DNA of 64,000 nucleotides from Spirochaetia bacterium (GCA_009885955.1 VFJS01000056.1:15941-79940); one strand, 5' to 3'. Counted from the stretch's first letter, positions 23,431 to 56,888 are shown. Numbers and translations: made by a program. The notes: generated from the sequence alone by a model not told the origin.

Positions 23431-23477
23431 TTCTCATATTACTCCACTTTTTAGTTGTCATTAATTAAAAAATATTT

Positions 23478-23509
23478 GTTCACGGATTCACAGGGATAGT
23501 TACGGTATA
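23478..23509. promoter_or_regulatory. TCACGGATTCA-family motif, site a
   Basis: TTCACGGATTCACAGGGATAGTTACGGTATAC in the divergent intergenic region upstream of the RACo-like gene. Confidence 0.3.
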
Positions 23510-23753
23510 CATCATTTCATTTCTGATTAATATGTTCATTATTACCGGGTAGAATCCGGCCGGGAATATTTTTGTCAAGCTGATTATTCCGTATTTCAGC
23601 ATGCCTGAACTGTTTTTGAAAAGGATGACTTTTTCACGGGAACTGAATTTATTGTTGAAATAAATTCATTGTTTTACATATTATTGAAATGTAAATATTC
23701 GCGGCTGATGAACCCTTGACAGGGGTTTGATATACAGGCGCTGCCGATAAAAT

Positions 23754-29000: not shown

Positions 29001-30163
29001 GCACCTCCGCCTTTATTAAGCCCCTTCCATATGATGGATTTGCCGGAGCGTGAATCTGATTCAGAGTCAATGATGATTGATTTTATCAACTCCGGAGTGA
29101 CATCCCTGCCGCCCAGGCCCGCGATGATCCCGATGACATCCGGGGGATTCGGGGCTGAATAGAGCGCGCTTTTCACCTCCTGCGCGAAGATGCCTCCCAG
29201 TCCCGGAGAGAGGTTTCTGTCTATCACTATGGCAAGTTTTTTTCCGTCCAGAGCCCTCCGTATCTCCTCTGCCGGGAACGGGCGGAAGAGCCTTATTTTC
29301 AGGAGGCCCACGCGTTCACCATCCTTTCTCATGGCGTCAATGACGGATCGCACTGTCCCTGCCATGGTACTTGCGCAGATTATCACTTTCCCGGCATCGT
29401 GGAGCATGTATGTTTCAATGATGCCGTAACCTCTTCCGAATATTTCATTGTATTCACCGGCTGATCCGGTGAATACTTCTTCAACTTTTTCCATGGCACA
29501 CTGCTGGTCATGGCGCATCTCCATGAAGTATTTCGGTGAAGCCATGCTTCCCAGGGCCGCGGGATGTTTTATGTCCAGGAATACACCGGGGCTGTATGCC
29601 GGGAGAAAGGAGTCAACTTCACCCTGTTCCGGGATGTCCACGGGTTCCGATGTATGGGAGAGGTAGAAGGCATCATAGGCAATCATTACGGGGAGCATGA
29701 CCGTTTCGGCAATGCGGTATGCCATGACGGTCAGGTCAAAGATCTCCTGCCCGGTCTCGCAGTAGACCTGGATCCAGCCGGTGTCGCGCTGCGACAGGGA
29801 ATCGGTCTGGTCGGCCCAGATGTTCCACGACGGCGCAAGGGCCCTGTTGACGTTTACCATGACAACGGGAAGCCGCGCGCCCGATGTCCAGTGGAGGAGC
29901 TCATGCATGAGCGCAAGCCCCTGGGACGATGTGGCAGTGAAGGTCCGTGCCCCGGCTGATGAGGCCCCGATGAGGCTTGCCAGGGCAGAATGTTCTGATT
30001 CCACCTTGAGAAATCGGGCTTTCAAATCCCCACTGCCGCAAAGTTCCGAGAGGAATTCCACAATCTGGGTCTGCGGGGTTATAGGATATGCGGATATCAC
30101 CTCCACCCTTGAACGGAGCACGGCATAGGATGCTGAATAATTTCCAATGATAACTTTTTTCAC
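28997..30163 (-). CDS. porA: pyruvate/2-oxoacid:ferredoxin oxidoreductase alpha subunit
   Basis: GNYSASYAVLRSRVEVISAYPITPQT N-terminus characteristic of the OFOR alpha family. Overlaps porB by 4 bp. Confidence 0.9.
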   Translation of the reverse strand: MKKVIIGNYSASYAVLRSRVEVISAYPITPQTQIVEFLSELCGSGDLKARFLKVESEHSALASLIGASSAGARTFTATSSQGLALMHELLHWTSGARLPVVMVNVNRALAPSWNIWADQTDSLSQRDTGWIQVYCETGQEIFDLTVMAYRIAETVMLPVMIAYDAFYLSHTSEPVDIPEQGEVDSFLPAYSPGVFLDIKHPAALGSMASPKYFMEMRHDQQCAMEKVEEVFTGSAGEYNEIFGRGYGIIETYMLHDAGKVIICASTMAGTVRSVIDAMRKDGERVGLLKIRLFRPFPAEEIRRALDGKKLAIVIDRNLSPGLGGIFAQEVKSALYSAPNPPDVIGIIAGLGGRDVTPELIKSIIIDSESDSRSGKSIIWKGLNKGGGA

Positions 30164-31917
30164 CGGTCACCCTCCATATCCATCCGTATGAATCCGCCCG
30201 GGCACTCCTCGGCGCAAATTCCGCACCCCTTGCAGTGGTCATAGTCAATTACAATGCCGGTGCCGTCCTTCTGTTTCGTTATGGAATAATCCGGGCAGAA
30301 GAGGATGCAGTTTCTGCACAGTGTGCATTTACCGCACTGGAAACACCGCATTGCCTCGGAAACGGCGCTCTCGTTATCCAGCCCTGATTTGATCTCTTTA
30401 AAGTTTGTTTTTCTCGCTTCCGGGTTCAGCTTATGTCCGGCTTTCCTGACGCCACGTCTATAATAGGCATGGTTTATTTTTATTTCAGCGCATGATGCCT
30501 GTGCCTGTATGCCTCTTGTATCAGCCGGTTTTTTTATGAGGTCAAGGTATCGCATAAAGGAGTGGCCTCCGCTGCAGATGGATGTTTTATCAAATACTTC
30601 ATCCAAGTTCAGCCGGTTGATATGCGCATCCATGAATATGGCAGCCTTTTTTCCCGATGCAAGGGCGTTCACCACGAGCCGTGGATGGGGCAGGATGTCG
30701 CCCCCGGCAAATATGCCTGCCATGGATGTCCTCCCGAACCTGTCAGTAATGATGCCTGAAGAATCATGGGCGATGAAATCTTCCCCCCACGGGATGCCGG
30801 CTGCCTCCCCGATCGCTGAAATAACATCATCGGCCCTGAGTGAAAACTCCGACCCCTTTAATTCTGACAATATCCCTTTCCTTTTTTTTCCGCTATTGCC
30901 CGGCGACACCCTGACGCATGTAACACCTGTTATTTTACCTTTTTTTGTTATGATTTCCCTGGCAATAGAGCCGGTGATTATCTCAACACCTTCTTCAATA
31001 GCATCCTCCACCTCATTCCTGAATGCAGGCATATCATCCAATTCTCTTCGATAAAGGATAAGCGGTTTTTTTCCGGCCCGGAGGAGGCTCCGCGCAGTGT
31101 CTATGGCAGTGTTTCCTCCACCGATTATTATCACATTGTCCCCGAAGGTCCCGGCTATTTCCCTTCCGGTCATCGCAAGGACTTCTTTCCCAGGCCTCAC
31201 AAGAGAATTATCCCCTGATATGCCTTCAGGTTTAATGGAATTACCTGCGCCGGTTCCAAGGAAGATGTATTGATATTTTTTCAGATCACCGAATGTAAAG
31301 TCTTTTCCCAGGGATTGTCCCGGGATAATTTCAGGCTTCAAAGCAAGAAGATCTTTCAGCGAGGAATCGAGGATTTTTTCCGGGAGCCGGTATTCCGGTA
31401 TTCCATACCTGAGGATTCCGCCGATTTTGCGGCCAGCATCGAAGATGGTAACCCTGTGCCCCAGGAGGAGAAGATAATATGCGGCAGCAATGCCCGAAGG
31501 GCCACCGCCTATAACGGCAATTTTTTTACCTGCAGCCTTCCTGATCCTATGGGGTCCCGGTGACGGTTCATCGCCAGAAATCCTCTCCAGCGCATGGATT
31601 GCAATGGCCTCATCGAAATCCTTCCTGGAACAGCTCGATTCGCAGGGGTGCGGGCATACCCTCCCGCATATGGAGGGCAGGGGGTTTTCCCACCGGGCCA
31701 GGGCTGCCGCTTTTTTCATCCTCCCGCTGCCGATTTCCTTTATGATAGAGGACACCGGCACCGCAAGGGGGCAGGCTGCTTCGCATGGCGAAATCCTTGA
31801 TGCCGCTTCAGGAAAGACATATCCCCAGTTTCCCGTGTAATTATTTTTCATGGATATGTTTGATACAGATACCATGGGTATCACAGGGCTGTTGGAACTA
31901 TTTTTTTTTATTGTCAT
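30160..31917 (-). CDS. GltD-like NAD(P)H-dependent FAD oxidoreductase fused to a C-terminal 2x[4Fe-4S] ferredoxin (delta-subunit-like) domain
   Basis: N-terminal Cys cluster (CEAACP .. CGRVCPHPCESSC). Two dinucleotide-binding motifs (IAVIGGGPSGIAAA and IIIGGGNTAIDTA). C-terminal CFQCGKCTLCRNCILFCP and CKGCGICAEECP. Overlaps porA by 4 bp. Confidence 0.8.
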   Translation of the reverse strand: MTIKKNSSNSPVIPMVSVSNISMKNNYTGNWGYVFPEAASRISPCEAACPLAVPVSSIIKEIGSGRMKKAAALARWENPLPSICGRVCPHPCESSCSRKDFDEAIAIHALERISGDEPSPGPHRIRKAAGKKIAVIGGGPSGIAAAYYLLLLGHRVTIFDAGRKIGGILRYGIPEYRLPEKILDSSLKDLLALKPEIIPGQSLGKDFTFGDLKKYQYIFLGTGAGNSIKPEGISGDNSLVRPGKEVLAMTGREIAGTFGDNVIIIGGGNTAIDTARSLLRAGKKPLILYRRELDDMPAFRNEVEDAIEEGVEIITGSIAREIITKKGKITGVTCVRVSPGNSGKKRKGILSELKGSEFSLRADDVISAIGEAAGIPWGEDFIAHDSSGIITDRFGRTSMAGIFAGGDILPHPRLVVNALASGKKAAIFMDAHINRLNLDEVFDKTSICSGGHSFMRYLDLIKKPADTRGIQAQASCAEIKINHAYYRRGVRKAGHKLNPEARKTNFKEIKSGLDNESAVSEAMRCFQCGKCTLCRNCILFCPDYSITKQKDGTGIVIDYDHCKGCGICAEECPGGFIRMDMEGDR

Positions 31918-31963
31918 GGGTTTATTATTTCAAGTTATGGCAACTATTTAGTTAATAATATTT

Positions 31964-31977
31964 ACTCACGGATTCAA
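31964..31977. promoter_or_regulatory. TCACGGATTCA-family motif, site b
   Basis: TTACTCACGGATTCAAAG about 50 bp upstream of the GltD-ferredoxin fusion gene start, immediately followed by REP copy 1. Confidence 0.3.
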
Positions 31978-31989
31978 AGATCTATTCAT

Positions 31990-32029
31990 GCCCTCACCCC
32001 CGTCCCCTCTCCCGAAGTAGGGCGAGGGG
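31990..32029 (+). repeat. REP-like GC-rich palindromic element, copy 1 (solo)
   Basis: GCCCTCACCCCCGTCCCCTCTCCCGAAGTAGGGCGAGGGG. Lies inside the por cluster between the gamma gene and the GltD-fusion gene. Confidence 0.8.
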
Positions 32030-32049
32030 TGTCTGTTTCCAGTTTTGTA

Positions 32050-32610
32050 TCACCCTTTTGAATAGAGTGCGACTGTGTCAAAGGCCTCCCGTGCGGCCAA
32101 TGCATTTTCCTTCTGCTTGAACGGGACCTCCTGGTGTATGGCCTCTTCTATGGAATCGAATTTCAGCATCCCGGTAAAAGATGCAAAGGCCCCGGCAATG
32201 GCGGTATTGATGATGGGGGATGTTGCGGTCCCGAGCCCGTGTTTCAGAGCTATTGACGTTGCATCCACATAGCCGGTTCTGAATCTGCCAAAATCCATAC
32301 CGGCGATCCTCTTTTCGCCTGCATTGATAAGGATGGTCCCCTTTTCACCGAGCCCCTCGCAGACATTTACGGCCTCAACAAGGGTATGGTCCAGTACAAT
32401 GATATGCCCGGGGGTATAGACTTCAGACCTGAGATTGATGGGCACGGTGTCGATACGGACAAAGGCGCAGATGGGCGCGCCCCTTCGCTCAACCCCGAAA
32501 GCAGGAAAGGACTGGACCTGGAACCCTTCAATGTAAAAGGAGACAGCGAGGATTTTTGAAGCTATAACAGCCCCCTGCCCCCCGCGCCCATGGATCCTTA
32601 TCTCAATCAC
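32050..32610 (-). CDS. porG: pyruvate/2-oxoacid:ferredoxin oxidoreductase gamma subunit
   Basis: IEIRIHGRGGQGAVIASKILA N-terminus typical of OFOR gamma. 186 aa. Confidence 0.9.
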   Translation of the reverse strand: MIEIRIHGRGGQGAVIASKILAVSFYIEGFQVQSFPAFGVERRGAPICAFVRIDTVPINLRSEVYTPGHIIVLDHTLVEAVNVCEGLGEKGTILINAGEKRIAGMDFGRFRTGYVDATSIALKHGLGTATSPIINTAIAGAFASFTGMLKFDSIEEAIHQEVPFKQKENALAAREAFDTVALYSKG

Positions 32611-32658
32611 ATTTAGAAATCCTTTGGTAAAATAAAAAACATTATTCAGTATTAATAA

Positions 32659-32692
32659 TTGCTCACGGATTCAATGGGATGTTCACGGATTA
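32659..32692. promoter_or_regulatory. TCACGGATTCA-family motif, site c (direct repeat)
   Basis: TTGCTCACGGATTCAATGGGATGTTCACGGATTA about 50 bp upstream of the porG start. Confidence 0.3.
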
Positions 32693-32713
32693 TTTTTTTC
32701 CCTTCAAAACTGT

Positions 32714-32758
32714 GCCCTCACCCGCGCTCTGCGCGCCCTCTCCCAGTAGGGCGAGGGC
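32714..32758 (+). repeat. REP-like element, copy 2
   Basis: GCCCTCACCC-GCGCTCTGCGCG-CCCTCTCCCAGTAGGGCGAGGGC. Confidence 0.8.
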
Positions 32759-32787
32759 TTCTTAAATATAATTTTTAATAACCACTA

Positions 32788-32889
32788 CCCCCCTCTCCCT
32801 ATTCCGGGAGAGGCGACAAGCAGGATGCTTTAGTGTCGAGCGCGGACACGGATGTCCAAAAAAGCGCTCGACGAGACGGGGGTGAGGGC
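32788..32889 (-). repeat. REP-like element, copy 3 (inverted partner of copy 2; carries a ~60-bp insert with its own palindrome)
   Basis: CCCCCCTCTCCCTATTCCGGGAGAGG .. GTCGAGCGCGGACACGGATGTCCAAAAAAGCGCTCGAC .. GGGGGTGAGGGC. Confidence 0.7.
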
Positions 32890-32899
32890 ATTTTCATAG

Positions 32900-34099
32900 T
32901 TATGCTTTCAAGGCAAAGTTTTTCCCGTATTCAAAGCATTTTGCCGCAGTATCGCCGTCGGGGTTCCACTGGGACCTTAGCCCTTCATCTGACACCTCAA
33001 ATCCCGACTCTGCCAGGAGCCCGTTCAATAGCTTTACCGATTCACCGCTCCACCCGTAGGTGCCGAAACTTCCCCCTTTTTTACCCTTAAATCCCAGGCC
33101 CTTTATCTCTTCCATGATCCCGGCAACGCCGCTCAGTATCCCCCTGTTTACCGTGGGAGACCCGACGATGAGACCCTTTGATTTAAAGACCTCGGTTATA
33201 ATGTCATTCTTGTCTCCGGTGGATATCTTGAGCATTTTCACCACAACCCCGGGGTCGCCCTCGCGGATCCCCCTGACGATATTCTCGGCCATGATCCTTG
33301 TGCCGTTCCACATGGAATCGTAGATGACGGTTATCTGGTTTTCTTTATAAGAATCGGCCCATTCCATATACTTTTTAATGATCTGCGCAGGGTCCTTTCT
33401 CCACATGACGCCGTGGCTCGGGCAGATGATGTCCAGGGGGAGGTTCATGGCAGTGACGTCCTGGATTTTTTTCGTCACCATCTTATTGAAGGGAGTGAGG
33501 ATGTTGGCATAGTACTTGATACATTCATGAAGGAGCTCGTACTGGTCCACCAGGTCATTATACATCAGCTCCGACGCATAGTGGTGGCCGAAGGCATCGC
33601 TGCTGAAGAGGATGTTGTCGCCTGTCAGGTAGGAGAACATGGTGTCGGGCCAGTGGAGCATTGCCGCTTCAACAAAGACAAGGTCCTTTGAGCCAAGGTT
33701 CAGCCTGTCCCCGGTTTTAACAGTTTTATAATTCCACTCTTTATGGTACTGCCCCTTGAGAGATTTTACCCCGTTTGCAGTGCAGTAAATGGGTGTTTCA
33801 GGGATGAGCCTCATGAGCTCGGGCAGAGAACCGCTGTGGTCCACTTCACCGTGGTTCACGATGATGTAATCTATCTTCTTCAGATCCACGGTTTCGGAAA
33901 GCCTGCTGATAAATTCTCCTGAAAACGGCTCCCATACCGTGTCTATGAGGGCGGTTTTATCCTCCGTAATCAGGTATGAATTGTAGGATGACCCTTTGTG
34001 CGTGGAATATTCGTCGCCGTGAAATTTTTTCAGTTCCCAGTCGATTTTCCCCACCCAGTGTACATTGTTTTTTATATTGAAACTCATTATTTTCTCCAT
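32900..34099 (-). CDS. flavodiiron protein (class A FDP / rubredoxin:oxygen oxidoreductase-like)
   Basis: Metallo-beta-lactamase-like diiron site H-x-E-x-D-H (VNHGEVDHSG) followed by a C-terminal flavodoxin-like domain. 399 aa. Confidence 0.9.
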   Translation of the reverse strand: MEKIMSFNIKNNVHWVGKIDWELKKFHGDEYSTHKGSSYNSYLITEDKTALIDTVWEPFSGEFISRLSETVDLKKIDYIIVNHGEVDHSGSLPELMRLIPETPIYCTANGVKSLKGQYHKEWNYKTVKTGDRLNLGSKDLVFVEAAMLHWPDTMFSYLTGDNILFSSDAFGHHYASELMYNDLVDQYELLHECIKYYANILTPFNKMVTKKIQDVTAMNLPLDIICPSHGVMWRKDPAQIIKKYMEWADSYKENQITVIYDSMWNGTRIMAENIVRGIREGDPGVVVKMLKISTGDKNDIITEVFKSKGLIVGSPTVNRGILSGVAGIMEEIKGLGFKGKKGGSFGTYGWSGESVKLLNGLLAESGFEVSDEGLRSQWNPDGDTAAKCFEYGKNFALKA

Positions 34100-34215
34100 G
34101 GATTTATAGCATTAATTTCAAAATAGCAGGATAAAAAGATATGTCAATTAAATATTTAAATAATTGTATCTTGAAATGTAGCAATACTATATAATTTGTT
34201 TCTCCTCTACTTAAT

Positions 34216-34255
34216 GCCCTCACCCCCGTCCCCTCTCCCGGAATAGGGAGAGGGG
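34216..34255 (+). repeat. REP-like element, copy 4
   Basis: GCCCTCACCCCCGTCCCCTCTCCCGGAATAGGGAGAGGGG. Confidence 0.8.
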
Positions 34256-34415
34256 TGCCTTTTTCATGTTTTTGTATTAAAGCAAAGAATAATTTATATC
34301 TATTTCAATTTTATACTCAATCCGTAATAATAATCAATAGAGGTAGTTAATTCATATTGTGGTGTAATTTTTTAATATCGGAAATTATTTTTTATTATGC
34401 AGTTCATGCCTCAGT

Positions 34416-34465
34416 GCCCTTCTCCCTACCGGGAGAGGGGCGCGCCAGCAGGCGGGGGTGAGGGC
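34416..34465 (-). repeat. REP-like element, copy 5 (inverted partner of copy 4)
   Basis: GCCCTTCTCCCTACCGGGAGAGGGG-CGCGCCAGCAGGC-GGGGGTGAGGGC. Confidence 0.8.
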
Positions 34466-34479
34466 ACGGGGTTCATTTT

Positions 34480-35208
34480 TCACTTAAATTTCCCAGTCAG
34501 GATTTTGAACAGCACCGGCCCATAGTTCTTCCTGTGGCTTTCTATGGATCCAATGGGGAGTTCAAAGGTGATGAGGTGGATATTGTTCTCCTCTGCCCAT
34601 GTGCCGAAGGAACCGGGGGTTGCATATCCGATGCTCCCCACAAGGGGAAGGCCGGTCTCTCCTGAGAGCCAATTGCCTCGAACGGACAGGCGTGGGTCGT
34701 CTATGCAACCCAGGGGGGCATGGATTGATATGATGATCTCAGGTGAAATCTCTTCAACAAGTTTTATGATTGCCGGGGTTTCCGGTTCCGATCCGGGAGA
34801 GGTCCCCGGGCTCAGTACCGTGTCCATGGGTTCGTCGCTGAACCAGTTGTGGCATACGGGCTCAGGGGACCAGTTTGCCGTGGGAAAGTTCCTGTTCAGG
34901 TCAACTCCGGCACTGTTGCCCCTGGTGCCACGTGCTATGCCGTCGGGATTGAGCGATGTAACTGCAGATGCTGCCAGCCTGTTCCGGGGAATCATCCGGA
35001 GCACTGAAGAGAGGAGTACCGTGCCTTCGGGCTCGGTGCCGTGCTGGCCGGCTACTACAAGGCACCGGGGCTGCCCGGCGCCGGGCCCGAATACCTCCAG
35101 CGGGGCCCCCATCCTGCTCCTGCCGAAATTTCTCACGGCATGGTCTATGCTCCCCCGTTTCTGCCTGGGAAGGTGCCGGATATCAATTATTTTAATATTA
35201 TCAGCCAT
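34480..35208 (-). CDS. M14-like zinc carboxypeptidase / succinylglutamate desuccinylase-aspartoacylase family protein (GC-rich gene)
   Basis: HGTEPEG (H-x-x-E metal site) and a later SIHAPLG His. Local GC clearly above window average, which also creates a long spurious antisense ORF. Confidence 0.45.
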   Translation of the reverse strand: MADNIKIIDIRHLPRQKRGSIDHAVRNFGRSRMGAPLEVFGPGAGQPRCLVVAGQHGTEPEGTVLLSSVLRMIPRNRLAASAVTSLNPDGIARGTRGNSAGVDLNRNFPTANWSPEPVCHNWFSDEPMDTVLSPGTSPGSEPETPAIIKLVEEISPEIIISIHAPLGCIDDPRLSVRGNWLSGETGLPLVGSIGYATPGSFGTWAEENNIHLITFELPIGSIESHRKNYGPVLFKILTGKFK

Positions 35209-35404
35209 AATAATCAGCCTGTATTATTGATTTATTCATTGGCAATACTTTTATAGGTCATGAAATACGCCATTTACCGTAAGTCAATAGAATATAACAT
35301 GATATATTGTTGTAATTGTTTTCCTGTATATAAAAAAAATTTGACAAACCTGGAATTATCGGTATATTGAATTATGAGAAAAATTTGAAATCAGGAGGTT
35401 TTAC

Positions 35405-35827
35405 ATGTCAGATGTACAAAGACCAACATTATTAACAATATTGGGGGTTCTTGCAATAATCGGCGGTGTCTTGAGTATTATTGGTGGGATTGTCTTCCTC
35501 ATAGCTGCATTCGGCGCATTTACACTCAGCGTAATCTGGGGTCTTCTCGCCTTGATTGTTGCTGCTCTTACCCTGGGCGGCGGGGTTATCGGACTCATGG
35601 CAGGCATCAAGATCATGGGCAATAAACCCAAAGGTGTCAGCCAGCTGAAACTTTACACCTATATCGGTATCGGGTCTTCCATTCTGTGGCAGATAATTTC
35701 CGCGGGCGCATTGAAACAGCCTTTTTCCGTGGGCGATTTATTCAAAAATCTGATAATACCGGTAATAATTTTAGTTCTGCTCTTCACCCAGCAGTCTGTT
35801 AAGGATTATGAGCAGAAAGTAGGGTAG
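35405..35827 (+). CDS. small integral membrane protein (DUF4064-like?)
   Basis: Four predicted TM helices rich in G/I/L/A. RBS GGAGG 8 bp upstream of the ATG. Confidence 0.45.
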   Translation: MSDVQRPTLLTILGVLAIIGGVLSIIGGIVFLIAAFGAFTLSVIWGLLALIVAALTLGGGVIGLMAGIKIMGNKPKGVSQLKLYTYIGIGSSILWQIISAGALKQPFSVGDLFKNLIIPVIILVLLFTQQSVKDYEQKVG

Positions 35828-35838
35828 GTTCTGCTCAT

Positions 35839-35878
35839 GCCCTCACCCCCGGCCCCTCTCCCGAAATAGGGAGAGGGG
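35839..35878 (+). repeat. REP-like element, copy 6
   Basis: GCCCTCACCCCCGGCCCCTCTCCCGAAATAGGGAGAGGGG. Confidence 0.8.
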
Positions 35879-35983
35879 TGTTAGTTTTACCTATAATTCC
35901 TTAAAAATAAATAATTGTCATTACTATTTATATAGGAAATAATTTAAAGATTTTAATTGAAAATATTTAAAACATGTATAATA

Positions 35984-36028
35984 GCCCTCGCCCTACTGGG
36001 AGAGGGTGCGCAGAGCGCGGGTGAGGGC
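35984..36028 (-). repeat. REP-like element, copy 7 (inverted partner of copy 6)
   Basis: GCCCTCGCCCTACTGGGAGAGGG-TGCGCAGAGCGC-GGGTGAGGGC. Confidence 0.8.
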
Positions 36029-36040
36029 ATTAGTTTTATC

Positions 36041-38467
36041 CTACCCCTTAATCCTATACCTCTTCAAACTCAGGGAATTCGTCACAACCGATACCGAACT
36101 GAAGGCCATGGCTGCACCTGCAATAATCGGGTTGAGAAGCCCCATGGCAGCAAAGGGTATTCCAATGACATTATAGAAGAAGGCCCAGAAGAGGTTCTGC
36201 TTTATCTTCCTCATGGTCTTTTTTGACAGGAGTATGGCCGATACAGCGTTCTTCAAGCTGCTCCCTGCAAGGGTGATGTCGCCCGATTCTATGGCAATGT
36301 CGCTCCCGGTCCCCATGGCCATGCCGATGTCCGCGGTGGCAAGGGCAGGGGCGTCATTGATCCCGTCTCCCACCATGGCCACAACCATCCCCTTATTCTG
36401 GAGCTTTTTAATTTCGGCAGCCTTGTTCTCGGGAAGCACCTGGGAGATTATATGGCTGCTCTCTATGCCGGCCTGGGCCCCGATGGCGGCGGCGGTTCTT
36501 GCATTGTCTCCGGTCATCATGTAGACCTGTATGTTCATTGCCTGTAATTTTCCGATGGCCTCTGCCGAGTCTTCCCGTATGGTGTCTGCAACGGCGATGA
36601 TACCCATGAGCTTTCCGTCAGCGGCAATATAAATTGCGGTTTTCCCCTCTCCCTCGAGCCGATGAGAAATGGAATCTTCCGTAGTTATGGAGATATTATC
36701 CTCGGCCATGAGCGACCTTGTGCCTGCAAGGATGGAAAGGCCTTTGTACTGCGCCTTCACCCCCTTTCCCGGTATGGCAATGAAGTTTTCGGGGTCGTCG
36801 ATGCTGCCGGTCCTAACCTTTCCCATGGCATAGATGGCCCTCCCCAGGGGGTGTTCCGATTTTTTTTCCGCTACAGAAGCATATTCAATAAGGAGCCCTT
36901 CGTCTGTCCCGCCAAGGGGGATGATGTCGGTCACCGACGGTTCGCCCCTGGTTATGGTGCCGGTCTTGTCCAGGACCACGGCATGTATCTTCAGCGCCAG
37001 CTCCAGGCTCTCCACGTTTTTAATGAGAATGCCGTGTTCCGCACCAAGGCCTGTGCCCACCATGATGGCCGTGGGCGTTGCAAGCCCCAGGGCGCAGGGG
37101 CAGGCGATGACGAGCACCGAGACTGCTGCGATGATCCCCATGGAGGTATTCCCGAAAACAAGGCTCCAGAGGGCAAAGGTGATGATGGCGATGAGGAGCA
37201 CTGCAGGCACAAAGACCCCGGCAACTTTGTCTGCCAGTTTCTGTATGGGGGCCTTTGACCCCTGGGCCTCCTCCACTACTTTTATTATCCTTGCAAGTAC
37301 GGTATCCTTCCCGATCCTTGTGGCTTTAAAAGTAATGGACCCGTTCCGGTTTATGGTGCCGCCGATGATTCTATCTCCTTCCTTTTTGTCCACGGGCATG
37401 CTCTCGCCGGTAATCATGCTCTCGTCAACTGCTGAGAAGCCGCTCACCACCGTGCCGTCCACGGGGATCCTCTCGCCGGGCCGCACTGATATGATATCGC
37501 CGGTGATTACGCGTTCAATGGGGATCTCGGTTTCTTTCCCGTCCCTGATTACCGTTGCCGTTTTCGGCTGGAGCCCCATGAGCTTTTTTATGGCCTCGGA
37601 AGTCTTTCCCTTGGCCCCGGCTTCGAGATATTTTCCCAGGAGGACAAGGGTGATGATGAGCGCCGATGCCTCAAAGTAGAGGTCGCCTTTCACTCCCGCT
37701 GGAAGTTCCTTGAAAAATCCATTGTAAATGCTGAAAAAATATGCAGCGCTTGTGCCCATGGCTACCAGGAGGTCCATTCCGGGGCTCAGCGACTTCAGGC
37801 TTTTCCACCCGTTCCGGTAAAATCTCCACCCGATGAAAAACTGGACTGGAGATGCCACAATAAGCTGGAATAAGGGGTGGTGTAGGATATCGATATGGAA
37901 ATTGATGATCTCCAGGGTCATGGCAAGGATGAGAGGGGAACTGAGGACAATTGACAGTATGAGCCTCAGCCTGAGCCCGCGGATCTCTTTTTCACGGGCT
38001 TCTTTTTCATGGTCCCTGGAATCATGGCTTATCTCTTCGGCTTTGTACCCTGCGGTTTCAACAGCTTTTATCATTTCAGTTACAGAAGAGTTCAGGGGAT
38101 CATATTCCACAGTTGCCCGTTCCGTGGCCAGGTTTACTGAGGCATTTGTTACCCCGGGCACGCCTTTCAGGGCCTTTTCAACCCTGGCGGAACAGGAGGC
38201 GCAGGTCATGCCGAAAATGGCAATCTCAGCAGCGGCAGGACCTTCGACTGGCCTCTCCTTTTCTATAACTCCGAAGCCCAGGCCCCTGATTTTATCCATA
38301 ATTGCGGGTTCATCTATGACAGTATCGTCATATTCAACAGCAGCCCGTTCCATTGCGAGGTTTACGGCCACGCTTTTTATTCCGTCCTGTCCACCCAGTG
38401 TTTTCTCAATCCTGAGGGCGCACGAGGCGCAGGACATTCCGGTTATTCCAATGACATCTTTTTTCAT
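36041..38467 (-). CDS. copA: copper-translocating P1B-type ATPase with two N-terminal HMA domains
   Basis: GMSCASC and GMTCASC metal-binding motifs, CPC ([11 protein letters not shown]), DKTGT phosphorylation site, and GDGINDAP. 808 aa. Confidence 0.95.
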
Positions 38468-42963: not shown

Positions 42964-43065
42964 TCATTTTAGAAAAAATACAATTTGCCACAGAGGCTCA
43001 GAGACACAGAGAAATGGTAATGGATTTAATAAAGGCTGGAATAAGTCAGTCATGAAGAAAGAAAT

Positions 43066-43088
43066 TACTCACGGATTTGCACGGATAA
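43066..43088. promoter_or_regulatory. TCACGGATTCA-family motif, site d
   Basis: TACTCACGGATTTGCACGGATAA about 120 bp upstream of cysH. Confidence 0.3.
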
Positions 43089-43134
43089 ACATGGATAAAA
43101 TTGAATATGAATGATATCAATATTTGGAAAAAAA

Positions 43135-43168
43135 AATCCGTGAAAATCTGTGTGAATCCGTGAGCAAA
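43135..43168. promoter_or_regulatory. TCACGGATTCA-family motif, site e (inverted relative to site d)
   Basis: Reverse complement reads TTGCTCACGGATTCACACAGATTTTCACGGATT. About 40 bp upstream of cysH. Confidence 0.3.
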
Positions 43169-43203
43169 TATCAAAAACTGAAAAGTTCAATTGGATAAAG
43201 ATT

Positions 43204-46800: not shown

Positions 46801-46827
46801 GTGAAATCCGAGTAAATCCGTGAACCG
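46801..46827. promoter_or_regulatory. TCACGGATTCA-family motif, site f
   Basis: Reverse complement reads CGGTTCACGGATTTACTCGGATTTCAC. About 170 bp upstream of the LarE-like gene. Confidence 0.3.
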
Positions 46828-46985
46828 ATATTTATATTCCCGGATAGAGCGAAAAAATCCCAAAATTTTTTTCTTGTAAAAAATAATCAATTATTACAAT
46901 TGTAACTGGTTTATCAGTCACGATATGCCGGCCTGAAGTTTATTATCGGCATAGAGTAATTCATGTTGCGCAGACAGATGAAGCA

Positions 46986-48334: not shown

Positions 48335-48374
48335 GCCCTCACCCCTGACCCCTCTCCCGAAATAGGGAGAGGGG
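48335..48374 (+). repeat. REP-like element, copy 8
   Basis: GCCCTCACCCCTGACCCCTCTCCCGAAATAGGGAGAGGGG. Confidence 0.8.
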
Positions 48375-48398
48375 TAGTAGTGACATTTTAAAATGAAA

Positions 48399-48442
48399 CC
48401 CTCGCCCTACCGGGAGAGGGTGCGCGGAGCGCGGGTGAGGGC
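48399..48442 (-). repeat. REP-like element, copy 9 (inverted partner of copy 8)
   Basis: CCCTCGCCCTACCGGGAGAGGG-TGCGCGGAGCGC-GGGTGAGGGC. Confidence 0.8.
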
Positions 48443-52512: not shown

Positions 52513-54231
52513 ATGAAATTTTCTGAATTTAATCTGGATAAAAAAATATTAAAGGGTACCGATGAGGCCGGTTTCGTTGATTGCCTGGAAGTGCAGGCGG
52601 TAACCATTCCCCATGTACTTAACGGGAAGGATGTACTTGTGCAGTCCCAGACAGGGACAGGCAAAACTGCGGCATTTCTCGTCCCCCTTTTTCAGCGGAT
52701 CATGACCAGCACAACAAAAGGGAAGGCGCTTATCGTTGCCCCTACACGGGAGCTGGCAGTGCAGATCGAAAAAGAGGCGTCAATGCTCGGGAAGCATACC
52801 GGGCTGAAGTTCGGATGTTTTTACGGGGGCGTTGGGTATTCGGCGCAGGAAAAGCTGGTCTCCGACGGCATTGATATCATAATCGGTACACCGGGGAGGC
52901 TTATTGATCTCAACAACAGGAGGACCCTCCCTTTCAAGGATGTGGCCTTTGTCGTGATAGATGAGGCAGACAGGCTTTTTGACATGGGGTTTATGCCCGA
53001 TTTAAGGAAGATACTGAAAAAACTGAAACCCAAGTCGGAAAGGACTACCATGCTTTTCAGCGCCACATTGAGCTTCCAGGTCAAGTCCCTTGCCAGGGAC
53101 TATATGAATGAACCTGTTGAAATAGAGGTGAACCCTGAACAGATGACCGTGGATAAAATAAACCAGGTACTCTACCATGTAGGAAAGAAAGAAAAGATAT
53201 ACCTCCTGCTCGGCCTGCTTAAAAGGGAGAATCCGAAAAACGGCATAATCTTCGTCAACACCAAGAGGGGGGCCTATGAGATTGCCTCCAGGCTTATGCA
53301 TAACGGCTATAAATGCGAATACCTTATGGGCGACCTTGATCAGAAAAAGAGGCTCAAGATCCTGGATGATTTCAAAGCCGAGAAAGTGCCATTCCTTGTC
53401 GCTACCGATGTTGCATCAAGGGGGCTCCATGTGGAAGGCCTGGAGCTTGTTGTCAACTATGATCTTCCCAATGATACGGAGAGCTATGTTCACCGGATCG
53501 GAAGGACTGCCAGGGTGGGCAAATCGGGCAAGGCAATAACCTTTGCCTGCGAGGAGTTTGTCTATAGCCTGAGCGCTATTGAAGATTTTATAAAAATGAA
53601 AATTCCGGTAATCTGGGCAGATGAAGGGCTCTACGCCGAGGATTCAAGCGAGGGCCTTCATTTCAGGCTCAGCAGGGATGGTACCCCGATCAAGAAGGGC
53701 AGGGAAGGGAGAGGAACGAGGGATAGAAAGGACTCAAGGGAGACCAGGGATAGAAAGGATCCAAGAAGTTCAAGAGAAAGGAAGGATCCAAGAGAATCAA
53801 GGGAAAGGAAGGATCCAAGGGAGGCCAGGGAAGGAAGAAAACCGGCTGACAGGATAAAGAAGCTGCCTGAAGAGGAGATGGTTAAATCCGCCCGCCCTGA
53901 AAAAAGCCGAGACCCAAGACCTGACAGGAAAAGAAATCAGAGTCCCGGGAATGACAGGGCCAGGCATAAGGAATCGGCACGTACTGAGAAGTCTCCGGCA
54001 GTTAAAAAGGAATGGAAGGAGAGAGAGCATCATCATGATAGAAAATCCGGCAGTAAAAAGCCTGAGCATAAGAAAAAAGGCAGATCCCTTGATGAGAGGC
54101 TTGAATACTATAAGAGCAAGTACGGCGATAATTTTAAACCCACTGATGAACTCATCCAGGAAGAAAAGAAGCGGAAAGAAAACAGTTCAATTGTCAGGAA
54201 AATCCTTGGATTATTTTCAAAAAAGAAATAA
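52513..54231 (+). CDS. DEAD-box ATP-dependent RNA helicase with a repetitive Arg/Lys/Asp/Glu-rich C-terminal tail
   Basis: Q-motif, Walker A SQTGTGKT, DEAD (VIDEADRLFDMGF), SAT, HRIGRTAR. The tail contains reiterated RKDPRESRE units encoded by ~27-30-bp tandem repeats. Confidence 0.9.
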   Translation: MKFSEFNLDKKILKGTDEAGFVDCLEVQAVTIPHVLNGKDVLVQSQTGTGKTAAFLVPLFQRIMTSTTKGKALIVAPTRELAVQIEKEASMLGKHTGLKFGCFYGGVGYSAQEKLVSDGIDIIIGTPGRLIDLNNRRTLPFKDVAFVVIDEADRLFDMGFMPDLRKILKKLKPKSERTTMLFSATLSFQVKSLARDYMNEPVEIEVNPEQMTVDKINQVLYHVGKKEKIYLLLGLLKRENPKNGIIFVNTKRGAYEIASRLMHNGYKCEYLMGDLDQKKRLKILDDFKAEKVPFLVATDVASRGLHVEGLELVVNYDLPNDTESYVHRIGRTARVGKSGKAITFACEEFVYSLSAIEDFIKMKIPVIWADEGLYAEDSSEGLHFRLSRDGTPIKKGREGRGTRDRKDSRETRDRKDPRSSRERKDPRESRERKDPREAREGRKPADRIKKLPEEEMVKSARPEKSRDPRPDRKRNQSPGNDRARHKESARTEKSPAVKKEWKEREHHHDRKSGSKKPEHKKKGRSLDERLEYYKSKYGDNFKPTDELIQEEKKRKENSSIVRKILGLFSKKK

Positions 54232-54648: not shown

Positions 54649-54948
54649 GCAGGGCATCGTAGTTCATAATCAATTTTTTCTGAAATATTTGAAAATTTTG
54701 CCACAGAGGCTCGGAGACACAGAGAAAGGGTATGTGCCCTTTATTTAAAAAGTCCCATTATAAAAAGAAGGCAGGATAGCTGGGCGGCTATTCTGCCTTC
54801 TTAAATTACGTACAGTGCCAAGAAAATAATATGATATTATCGGGAGGGATAACCATATTACTGCTTGATCATTATTATTTATCGGTTTGGGATTCAGGAA
54901 ACTTTAATATTTTTTATCGCTCAGCCAGGGAAAAAATAGGAAAAAAAA

Positions 54949-55014
54949 TTGCTCACGGGTCGGCACGGATAATCACAGATAGAATAAACCGTAAGTAGAC
55001 CTGTGAATCCGGTG
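54949..55014. promoter_or_regulatory. TCACGGATTCA-family motifs, site g (two half-copies)
   Basis: TTGCTCACGGGTCGGCACGGATAATCACAG and, in reverse complement, CCGGATTCACAGG. About 50-100 bp upstream of rsgA. Confidence 0.3.
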
Positions 55015-56765: not shown

Positions 56766-56811
56766 GCCCTCACCCCGCCTTCGGCGCGCCCTCTCCCGAT
56801 AGGGCGAGGGC
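56766..56811 (+). repeat. REP-like element, copy 10
   Basis: GCCCTCACCCC-GCCTTCGGCGCG-CCCTCTCCCGATAGGGCGAGGGC followed by TTTTTG; terminator-like context after the ABC gene. Confidence 0.8.
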
Positions 56812-56847
56812 TTTTTGAACATAGAATAATTGATGATTTCAATTAAC

Positions 56848-56888
56848 ACCCCTCTCCCTATTTCGGGAGAGGGGACGGGGGTGAGGGC
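56848..56888 (-). repeat. REP-like element, copy 11 (inverted partner of copy 10)
   Basis: CCCCTCTCCCTATTTCGGGAGAGGGG-ACG-GGGGTGAGGGC. Confidence 0.8.

Follow-up and report, generated by a model that had tools for sequence, protein, structure and literature searches.

Among the short extragenic palindromes of bacteria, the repetitive extragenic palindromic (REP) elements co-evolve with the REP-associated tyrosine transposase (RAYT) of their lineage, and a conserved terminal tag, GTAG or CGTC, on one side of the palindrome is said, with reference to Di Nocera (2013), to be one of their features; the systems in which inverted REP doublets forming hairpins (REPINs) are coupled to a RAYT are reportedly to be credited to Bertels and Rainey (2011) and to Nunvar (2010). 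With another family, the BoxC repeats or potential intrastrand triplex (PIT) elements, the names of Bachellier (1990s) and of Hoyne and Maher (2000) are reportedly associated before that of Holder. Here we analyze a family of palindromic repeats in a 64,000-nucleotide stretch from a Spirochaetia bacterium (GCA_009885955.1, VFJS01000056.1:15941-79940; henceforth the window, with positions counted from its first letter). Based on the identity and order of their sequence blocks we conclude that its eleven copies are a distant lineage's form of the BoxC/PIT/TM repeats and not RAYT-driven REPs. Furthermore, we consider it fairly probable that they represent non-autonomous DNA, comparable to miniature inverted-repeat transposable elements (MITEs) or REPINs, situated at gene boundaries, for which the candidate mobiliser is a DUF559 protein instead of a RAYT.

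The BoxC repeat of the 1990s, the PIT element and TM_ECO are one and the same entity (Holder et al. 2015, PMC4666352). In Escherichia coli MG1655 it is present in 23 copies, all of which are intergenic, including five inverted pairs that each mix two loop-2 types (PMC4666352). The third block of the repeat mirrors the purine strand of its hairpin, which enables the single strand to adopt a class II purine-motif triplex, as demonstrated in vitro for the E. coli sequence by circular dichroism and nuclear magnetic resonance (PMC4666352). The same authors noted no association with mobile elements and a raised local sequence variability around the copies, and reported both the function of BoxC and its route of spread as unexplained (PMC4666352).

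A direct reading of positions 31,800 to 36,200 together with a scan of the entire window recovered eleven copies of a composite element, at the very coordinates that had been given in the initial annotation of this stretch (listed in the table below). The head sequence GCCCTCACCCC, with at most one mismatch, occurs 15 times as against 1.3 expected from dinucleotide-preserving shuffles (none of 100 reached 15), and the hairpin arm CCCCTCTCCC occurs 26 times as against 6.5 expected, a count likewise reached by no shuffle. A search with nhmmer --max, using a profile built from ten copies, retrieved the same eleven, with no additional degenerate copies anywhere in the 64 kb. All eleven are intergenic. 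The initial view of these palindromes as a genuine family of non-coding, interspersed repeats is upheld. The overall density is one unit per 5.8 kb; seven copies are clustered within 4 kb (31990-36028), two lie at 48335-48442 and two at 56766-56888, with none in the first 32 kb of the window.

In each unit a head, (T)GCCCTCACCC(C), is joined through a linker to a hairpin of the form CCCTCTCCC-loop-GGG(A/C)GAGGG. Read along the G-rich strand, all eleven copies parse into a pyrimidine (Y) block CCCTCTCCC, loop 1, a purine (R) block GGGAGAGGG, loop 2 and a third block GGGTGAGGG, such that CCCTCTCCC and GGGAGAGGG pair as a hairpin of 9-10 bp and GGGTGAGGG constitutes the mirror image of the R strand. 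The linker, initially annotated as being 1-13 nt in length, is indeed present, but it separates two subtypes: type A units are 41 nt long, with 10-nt stems, a linker of 2-3 nt and a hairpin loop of 6 nt, and type B units are 44-50 nt long, with a self-complementary linker of 12-16 nt and a hairpin loop of 4 nt. Similarly, the copy beginning at 32788 does possess an insert with its own palindrome, described at first as being of 60 bp, but this is better defined as a 62-nt arm occupying the position of the linker. As a separate observation, this arm, in which GGACA-CGGA-TGTCC is nested in GTCGAGCGC...GCGCTCGAC, has a counterpart at the same position in the partner of a type B unit on an unrelated metagenome contig (loci L224 and L225), where TGTACA-TCCG-TGTACA is nested in CAGCA...TGCTG; the two arms are similar in their two-hairpin build, and their homology is uncertain.

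Ten of the eleven copies form five opposite-strand pairs, as had been recognized initially, with inter-unit gaps of 23-163 nt, and the solo copy lies, again as first described, between the gene for the POR gamma subunit and that for a GltD-like protein. Every pair is head-out, with TGCCCTCACCC outermost and the hairpins directed inward across an AT-rich spacer, and in all five a short-linker copy (type A, one of these with the 62-nt arm) is combined with a type B copy, a composition with a probability of 0.13 if pairing were random. The resulting doublets are non-coding and 108-252 bp in size, and their two heads constitute terminal inverted repeats of 12-18 nt (up to 45 nt) with 88-100% complementarity.

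Comparison with the E. coli repeat reveals that the three 9-nt blocks, CCCTC(T/G)CCC, GGGAGAGGG and GGGTGAGGG, are identical in the two and arranged in the same order; the order of the E. coli blocks CCCTCNCCC / GGGNGAGGG / GGGNGAGGG (Table 1 of the E. coli study; our locus L213) is matched by all eleven window copies. Both also share the 'mm' variant of the Y strand, which is dominant in E. coli, an intergenic placement, pairs that always join two loop-2 types, and abutment on stop codons, which we confirmed directly in E. coli for the hrpB-mrcB pair, beginning 12 nt past the hrpB stop. However, the published regular expression for TM_ECO, with 9-nt stems, a loop 1 of 3-6 nt and a loop 2 of exactly 3 nt, has no match in the window because the type A stems are 10 nt long and the type B loop 2 is long. 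Type A, with a loop 2 of 2-3 nt, falls inside the limits of the ITxF definition (loops of 1-6 nt) but outside the TM_ECO spacing, whereas the type B loop 2 (12-16 nt) and the 62-nt copy fall outside both, the latter definition limiting loops to 6 nt. Further differences pertain to pair geometry (five of five head-out in the window versus four of five head-in in E. coli, from the coordinates in the published Table 1), density (the window has 35-fold that of MG1655, with one copy per 200 kb) and host, which here is an uncultured anaerobe (window G+C of 46%) and not a proteobacterium of the published list. Surveys based on TM_ECO or ITxF would therefore undercount the family, as 10-nt stems, a covarying loop-2 hairpin and dense head-out pairs escape these definitions. 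Taken on their own, the repeats of the window are ordinary, adding one further lineage to a repeat family known since the 1990s.

The motif is widely distributed. A pattern that we had expected to be lineage-specific was found in at least 89 stretches, and a search of IMG/VR with the general motif pattern gave at least 120 matches, on contigs of 32-73% GC, the range for motif-bearing contigs overall being 25-73%. Hosts among the matches listed include many Cyanobacteria, Chloroflexi, Planctomycetes (Gemmataceae), a bacterium of the Candidate Phyla Radiation, Ignavibacteria and Proteobacteria, along with Chromatiales, Myxococcales and one sphingomonad; across these the stems are invariant, with the loops and flanks being lineage-specific. 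The type B 31-mer of the window itself recurs in 15 metagenome contigs (44-70% GC), in most of which it is the B half of a window-like head-out B+A doublet (44-62% GC), and elsewhere both head-in and head-out geometries are encountered. The motif is also present on 37 plasmids or chromids in PLSDB and in a few GenBank phages, which qualifies the published statement that the repeat is absent from mobile replicons. We additionally observed triplex units in frame within phage structural open reading frames (ORFs) of IMG/VR, portal-like and terminase-like, encoding peptides such as PSPPSPLSQGGEGE (L035 5479-7065, L009 2214-3317 and L004 473-2152); a unit is thus able to survive within a coding region.

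In terms of class II purine-motif triplets (G*G:C, A*A:T and T*A:T, between the R strand and an antiparallel third block), nine of nine are possible in ten copies and eight of nine in the 32788 copy, and the single recurrent mismatch, CCCTCGCCC, always falls on the Y strand. Under a nearest-neighbour model without Hoogsteen pairs, single units as single-stranded DNA fold with -10 to -29 kcal/mol and whole doublets with -38 to -43 kcal/mol (z of about -8), the latter adopting the shape either of a long hairpin that bears a side arm or of a head-closed cloverleaf; the suggestion in the initial annotation that inverted doublets would yield long hairpins is thus supported by folding, with cloverleaves as a further outcome. 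Of 25 distinct long loop-2 sequences drawn from the window and other contigs, 19 have a loop of 3-5 nt closed by a perfect stem of 4 bp or more, as against 14% of shuffled loop-2 sequences (maximum 40% in 1000 shuffles), and twelve different stem sequences are used in these mini-hairpins. This covariation argues that the single-stranded fold is under selection, and constitutes, as far as we are aware, the first comparative evidence of this kind. In light of the E. coli version, we propose that the G-rich single strand would fold back twice to form a purine-motif intrastrand triplex in which the closed loop-2 hairpin would hold the third block beside the main hairpin; copies with the mismatch could alternate between two hairpins. 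Strong folds and a covarying loop-2 arm might also be expected of conserved structured small-RNA genes or cis-regulatory RNAs, an interpretation that we deem extremely improbable, given that Rfam models yield no match at the gathering score (the sub-threshold ones being spurious long-hairpin plant miRNA models), that the units occur in both orientations relative to neighboring genes, so that either strand would be transcribed, that no promoter pattern is apparent and that RNA does not adopt the purine-motif triplex (PMC4666352).

The initial filing of these repeats as REP/REPIN elements of a RAYT system was not borne out. Under that interpretation they would be REP doublets that depend for their copying on an IS200-like Y1 transposase, the gene for which would lie elsewhere in the genome between repeats of the same kind, and the likeness in geometry is genuine: short, extragenic, clustered palindromic units, of which ten make up five inverted doublets that fold into long hairpins and one is solitary. 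This geometry, however, does not confer membership. A phmmer search with the E. coli RayT recovered no homologue in the window, as had been stated from the start, or in 212 motif-bearing loci comprising 1.8 Mb, a search that has limited sensitivity to distant IS200-like proteins and that covered the source genome within the window only, which leaves some room for this alternative. The units have the BoxC blocks, a hairpin plus a mirror block, and are devoid of a terminal GTAG or CGTC tag, ending instead in T-GCCCTCACCC and GGGG-T(G), with GTAG being found exclusively in loop 1 of type B. Their stem sequence is invariant across phyla; E. coli possesses both systems, with its RayT being named as the transposase associated with REPs; and no published link between BoxC and RAYT was found in the literature searched. 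Moreover, the gene actually bracketed by units codes for a DUF559 protein, a candidate enzyme of the PD-(D/E)XK fold and not the HUH fold. We accordingly regard mobilization by a RAYT as very unlikely. If the DUF559 interpretation set out below holds, a further parallel to REPIN-RAYT systems would be that many non-autonomous copies stand opposite a rare, repeat-flanked protein gene. Two further searches near the motif did not reveal a transposase either. Clustering the ORFs of 250 loci for a recurrent transposase near the motif recovered phage structural genes, histidine kinases and ABC transporters as the recurrent families, and the genes lying between two units 0.3-3.5 kb apart are ordinary ones (phage tail proteins, SDR, a CRP-like regulator, AOX and Uma2).

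The initial suggestion of seeking a cognate gene enclosed by repeats of this family yielded no RAYT, either in the window or among the 212 motif-bearing loci, but did prove productive in that it uncovered DUF559. The lead came from two unrelated plasmid records in which a 'DUF559 domain-containing protein' was annotated under the motif match. The DUF559 proteins, Vsr-like nucleases of the PD-(D/E)XK type, are classed together with the homing endonuclease I-Bth0305I and form a very large family, with 20,405 clusters at 50% identity; a Caulobacter member (VsrA) has lately been proposed to function in very-short-patch mismatch repair. In Sphingomonas parapaucimobilis a 136-aa DUF559 gene is lodged between sufB and sufC with a unit on each side: the upstream unit, CCCCTCCCC-TTCA-GGGGAGGGG-CCG-GGGGTGGGGC, directly precedes the ATG, and the inverted unit, GCCCCACCCC-AA-CCCCTCCCC-TGAA-GGGGAGGGG, provides the last codons of the gene. 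Among the 120 closest homologues of this protein, the unit-encoded peptide PPLQGRGRGWG is found at the N-terminus in 90 and PHPNPSPEGEG at the C-terminus in 104. More broadly, a unit-like peptide is seen in 68 of 103 diverse C-terminally extended DUF559 representatives, as against 3% of shuffles and none of 1078 control windows, a sample that is biased by the unit-encoded C-terminus of the query itself and that we use only in support.

A set of 21 loci was collected by DUF559 protein similarity alone (two viral-contig families, 18 plasmid loci from 15 genera, and E. coli ycjD) and was scanned with a generic finder for a Y stem, a complementary R stem and a mirror third block. At least one unit lies within 500 nt of the DUF559 gene in 14 of the 21, where about one is expected (P of about 2e-14, rising to 1e-5 with a five-fold higher background). 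The seven loci missed by the finder display, upon inspection by eye, the same build with shorter stems (e.g. CCCCCC-AGAATT-GGGGGG-CTA-GGGGGG in Pseudanabaena). Across five 50-kb regions, unit density is 1.16 per kb near the DUF559 gene versus 0.037 per kb elsewhere, though it must be set against the association that these regions were chosen from loci already having a near-gene unit. Individual loci reinforce the pattern. A 649-bp element (L257) has perfect 38-bp BoxC terminal inverted repeats, head-out, around a DUF559 ORF, and in another locus (L255) the DUF559 gene lies between head-out units with long structured loop-2 arms; both have the organization [head-hairpin]-DUF559-[hairpin-head], which is the head-out geometry of the window. 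In E. coli, the DUF559 gene ycjD is followed, 168 nt downstream, by TM_ECO no. 9 of the published table, against a chance expectation of 0.007. In the regions checked, the gene-flanking units are of the same subtype as those dispersed on the same replicon, and within one Sphingomonas strain different DUF559 paralogues are accompanied by different unit variants. DUF559 genes are also found within conserved operons (sufB|sufC, pntAA|pntAB and paaD|paaZ) and upstream of dnaG. The positional association between DUF559 and the units, outside the genome under study, is strong. Members of this family from different phyla are bracketed by BoxC-type units in inverted orientation, whereas publications have assigned Vsr-like and DUF559 proteins to T/G mismatch repair and intron homing; the literature searched yielded no report connecting DUF559 with interspersed triplex repeats.

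In light of this association we propose that the trans-acting function for the window repeats would be supplied by a candidate DUF559 (Vsr-like) endonuclease gene elsewhere in the genome, which would act on the units, possibly through recognition of the triplex or of another single-strand fold, with the outermost 12-18 nt of each pair acting as terminal inverted repeats. As the window has no DUF559 gene, its pairs are best read as non-autonomous copies; they would be equivalent to DUF559-type cassettes minus the gene, i.e. non-autonomous derivatives or substrates. The doublets are comparable to MITEs in being small, without an ORF and bounded by terminal inverted repeats. Longer relatives with such ends around a DUF559 ORF were encountered in other organisms (L257 and L255), and none in the window. 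The doublets differ from MITEs in that the internal spacer varies from copy to copy and no DDE transposase is involved, nor does a target-site duplication stand out at their flanks. More generally, we offer as a tentative proposal, possible but short of probable, that BoxC/PIT units are the repeat partner of a second nuclease-repeat system parallel to REP-RAYT, in which small DUF559 genes, bracketed by inverted units with stems that differ according to the DUF559 lineage, would be the autonomous or cognate form and the dispersed singlets and doublets, the five pairs of the window among them, their non-autonomous derivatives or substrates, YcjD being the E. coli enzyme. The window repeats are of modest interest in themselves and gain from the prospect of a candidate enzyme for the entire repeat family; the DUF559 association turns the question of BoxC function and spread into a direct experiment in a model organism.

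Several observations weigh against the mobilization of the window repeats by a DUF559 enzyme. Neither a DUF559 ORF nor a remnant of one is present in the window, the spacers included, and none of the 15 metagenome loci with the type B 31-mer of the window contains a DUF559 gene. The doublet spacers lack homology past about 8-12 nt next to the hairpins, which is unexpected for a recently copied unit, and no target-site duplication is seen at the doublets, the flanks of which share at most an 'AT' that prolongs the palindrome TGCCC...GGGCA; these two features do not fit a simple cut-and-paste MITE. The flanks of DUF559 genes show both head-in and head-out arrangements and thus no single rigid architecture. 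With respect to the E. coli repeat, a stable triplex was not seen by dimethyl sulfate footprinting in vivo, and PIT elements had neither promoter nor terminator activity, as established by earlier studies cited there, and no effect on replication in vivo (PMC4666352).

Finally, DUF559 genes could equally insert into or beside existing units, such that the units are targets: DUF559 would comprise free-standing homing-type genes entering the units, and the units would multiply by other means, such as replication or repair errors at non-B structures. The same association data fit this account, as do the grouping of DUF559 with I-Bth0305I and the presence at L261 of a complete doublet upstream of the DUF559 gene in lieu of a unit per side. 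It also finds favor in a second, synonymously diverged sufB 3' end beside a sphingomonad cassette, of a kind typical of site-specific invasion. Nevertheless, most units and doublets are empty, only one of the 23 E. coli copies being near ycjD, and no other copying mechanism is known; the match in subtype between gene-flanking and dispersed units, for its part, accords with both accounts. On balance we hold the units as mere targets to be unlikely. The sphingomonad cassette (L282, a metagenome contig) deserves description in its own right: it lies downstream of sufB between two copies of the last 15 sufB codons (1960-2004 and 2487-2531) that differ at synonymous Ser and Leu codons. This suggests that the cassette came carrying a foreign copy of the 3' end of its target, and the duplicated sufB end would be a signature of site-specific invasion.

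The location of the units at gene boundaries raises a further alternative, namely that they are punctuation selected by the host (bidirectional terminators, insulators or 3'-end stabilisers), neither currently mobile nor served by a cognate enzyme. In keeping with this, unit heads lie 3-15 nt from the stop codons at six gene ends, the head-out pairs place a T-rich tract after each hairpin facing the incoming transcript, and relatives in metagenomes have GGAGAGGGTTTTC after the hairpin. The initial annotation had inferred that several copies act as terminators: four to five of the eleven do pass a lenient terminator scan, but only two of these, 35839(+) and 56766(+), are canonical terminators for a co-oriented upstream gene, with the solo copy and several others being wrongly oriented. 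Moreover, the third block and the invariant stem are superfluous for a terminator, the E. coli PIT elements are without terminator activity (PMC4666352), and the copies on plasmids and phages, the in-frame copies within ORFs and the DUF559 association are all left unaccounted for. As a general explanation, host punctuation thus seems to us improbable. For a minority of copies, action as a terminator or insulator is plausible and compatible with the units being either mobile elements or targets; under the proposed mobilization by DUF559, some copies would serve incidentally as hairpin or terminator-like punctuation.

Table. Repeat units and a second interspersed family in the window (positions from the first letter of the stretch)
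Position	Strand	Subtype and pairing	Structure	Gene context
31990..32030	+	type A, Y-strand mismatch (GGGCGAGGGG arm), solo	head GCCCTCACCCC, linker CGT, hairpin CCCCTCTCCC-GAAGTA-GGGCGAGGGG; found by scan and profile; single-stranded fold -10 kcal/mol	between POR-gamma gene (32050-32610) and Fer4_20/Pyr_redox_2 GltD-like gene (30160-31917)
32714..32758	+	type B, doublet 1 left	loop 2 GCGCTCTGCGCG, mini-hairpin GCGC-TCT-GCGC	
32788..32889	-	type A with 62-nt loop-2 arm, doublet 1 right	GTCGAGCGC...GCGCTCGAC around GGACA-CGGA-TGTCC; fold -28 kcal/mol, z about -5, three-way junction	head 11 nt from stop codon of flavorubredoxin-like gene
34216..34256	+	type A, perfect hairpin, doublet 2 left	followed by TGCCTTTTTC	
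34416..34465	-	type B-like, doublet 2 right	loop 2 CCGCCTGCTGGCGCGC, stem CGCC/GGCG	head 15 nt from stop codon of M14-peptidase-like gene
35839..35879	+	type A, doublet 3 left	terminator-like in this orientation	12 nt past stop of ORF 35405-35827
35984..36028	-	type B, doublet 3 right		13 nt from stop of P-type ATPase gene (36041-38467)
48335..48375	+	type A, doublet 4 left	doublet 4 (48335-48442) folds as cloverleaf, closing 12-bp stem formed by both heads	downstream of Rrf2 regulator gene
48399..48442	-	type B, doublet 4 right		
56766..56810	+	type B, doublet 5 left	loop 2 CGCCTTCGGCGCG; followed by CTTTTTG	3 nt past ABC ATPase stop
56848..56888	-	type A, doublet 5 right		upstream of PfkB kinase gene
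23469-23512, 31953-31988, 32650-32695, 43058-43187, 46806-46833, 54942-55011		CACGGAT family sites		

The genes neighboring the units are ordinary housekeeping genes of an anaerobe, coding for POR gamma, the GltD-like Fer4_20/Pyr_redox_2 protein, the flavorubredoxin-like protein, the M14 peptidase, the P-type ATPase, Rrf2, an outer-membrane efflux protein, the ABC ATPase and PfkB; the nearest homologue of the flavorubredoxin gene product is merely 71% identical. Three short-read Logan assemblies that contain this organism (SRR8670877, SRR8670878 and SRR8670873) are 100% identical to positions 32862-34537 of the window on contigs of just 1.4-1.7 kb, several of which stop inside repeat units, and such assembly breaks are consistent with a high copy number genome-wide.

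The window harbors a second interspersed family, TTGCTCACGGATTCA / CACGGAT, often in arrays with a spacing of 10-11 nt, with CACGGAT occurring 14 times as against 6.8 expected. Its sites are always situated 40-250 nt upstream of the start of a gene (GltD-like, POR gamma, PAPS reductase, NAD-synthase-like, rsgA and RACo), and the family has the look of a regulator-binding or promoter module common to these genes. We considered it as a possible part of the triplex unit and rejected this, as it adjoins only two of the eleven heads (31990 and 32714) and is otherwise upstream of unrelated genes. A 36-nt sequence, TTTGCCACAGAGGCTCAGAGACACAGAGAAA, occurs twice with 94% identity (42984-43019 and 54697-54732), upstream of CACGGAT arrays that precede a cysH-like operon in the first case and rsgA in the second; the second copy has an insertion of about 170 nt between the TTTGCCACAGAGGCTCAGAGACACAGAGAAA and CACGGAT modules. 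Lastly, a degenerate, AGGGA-rich tandem repeat with a 27-nt period (53710-53844; five copies of 67-100% identity) is situated within the C-terminal portion of an ORF for a DEAD-box helicase (52513-54231), where it probably encodes an R/G/E-rich tail.

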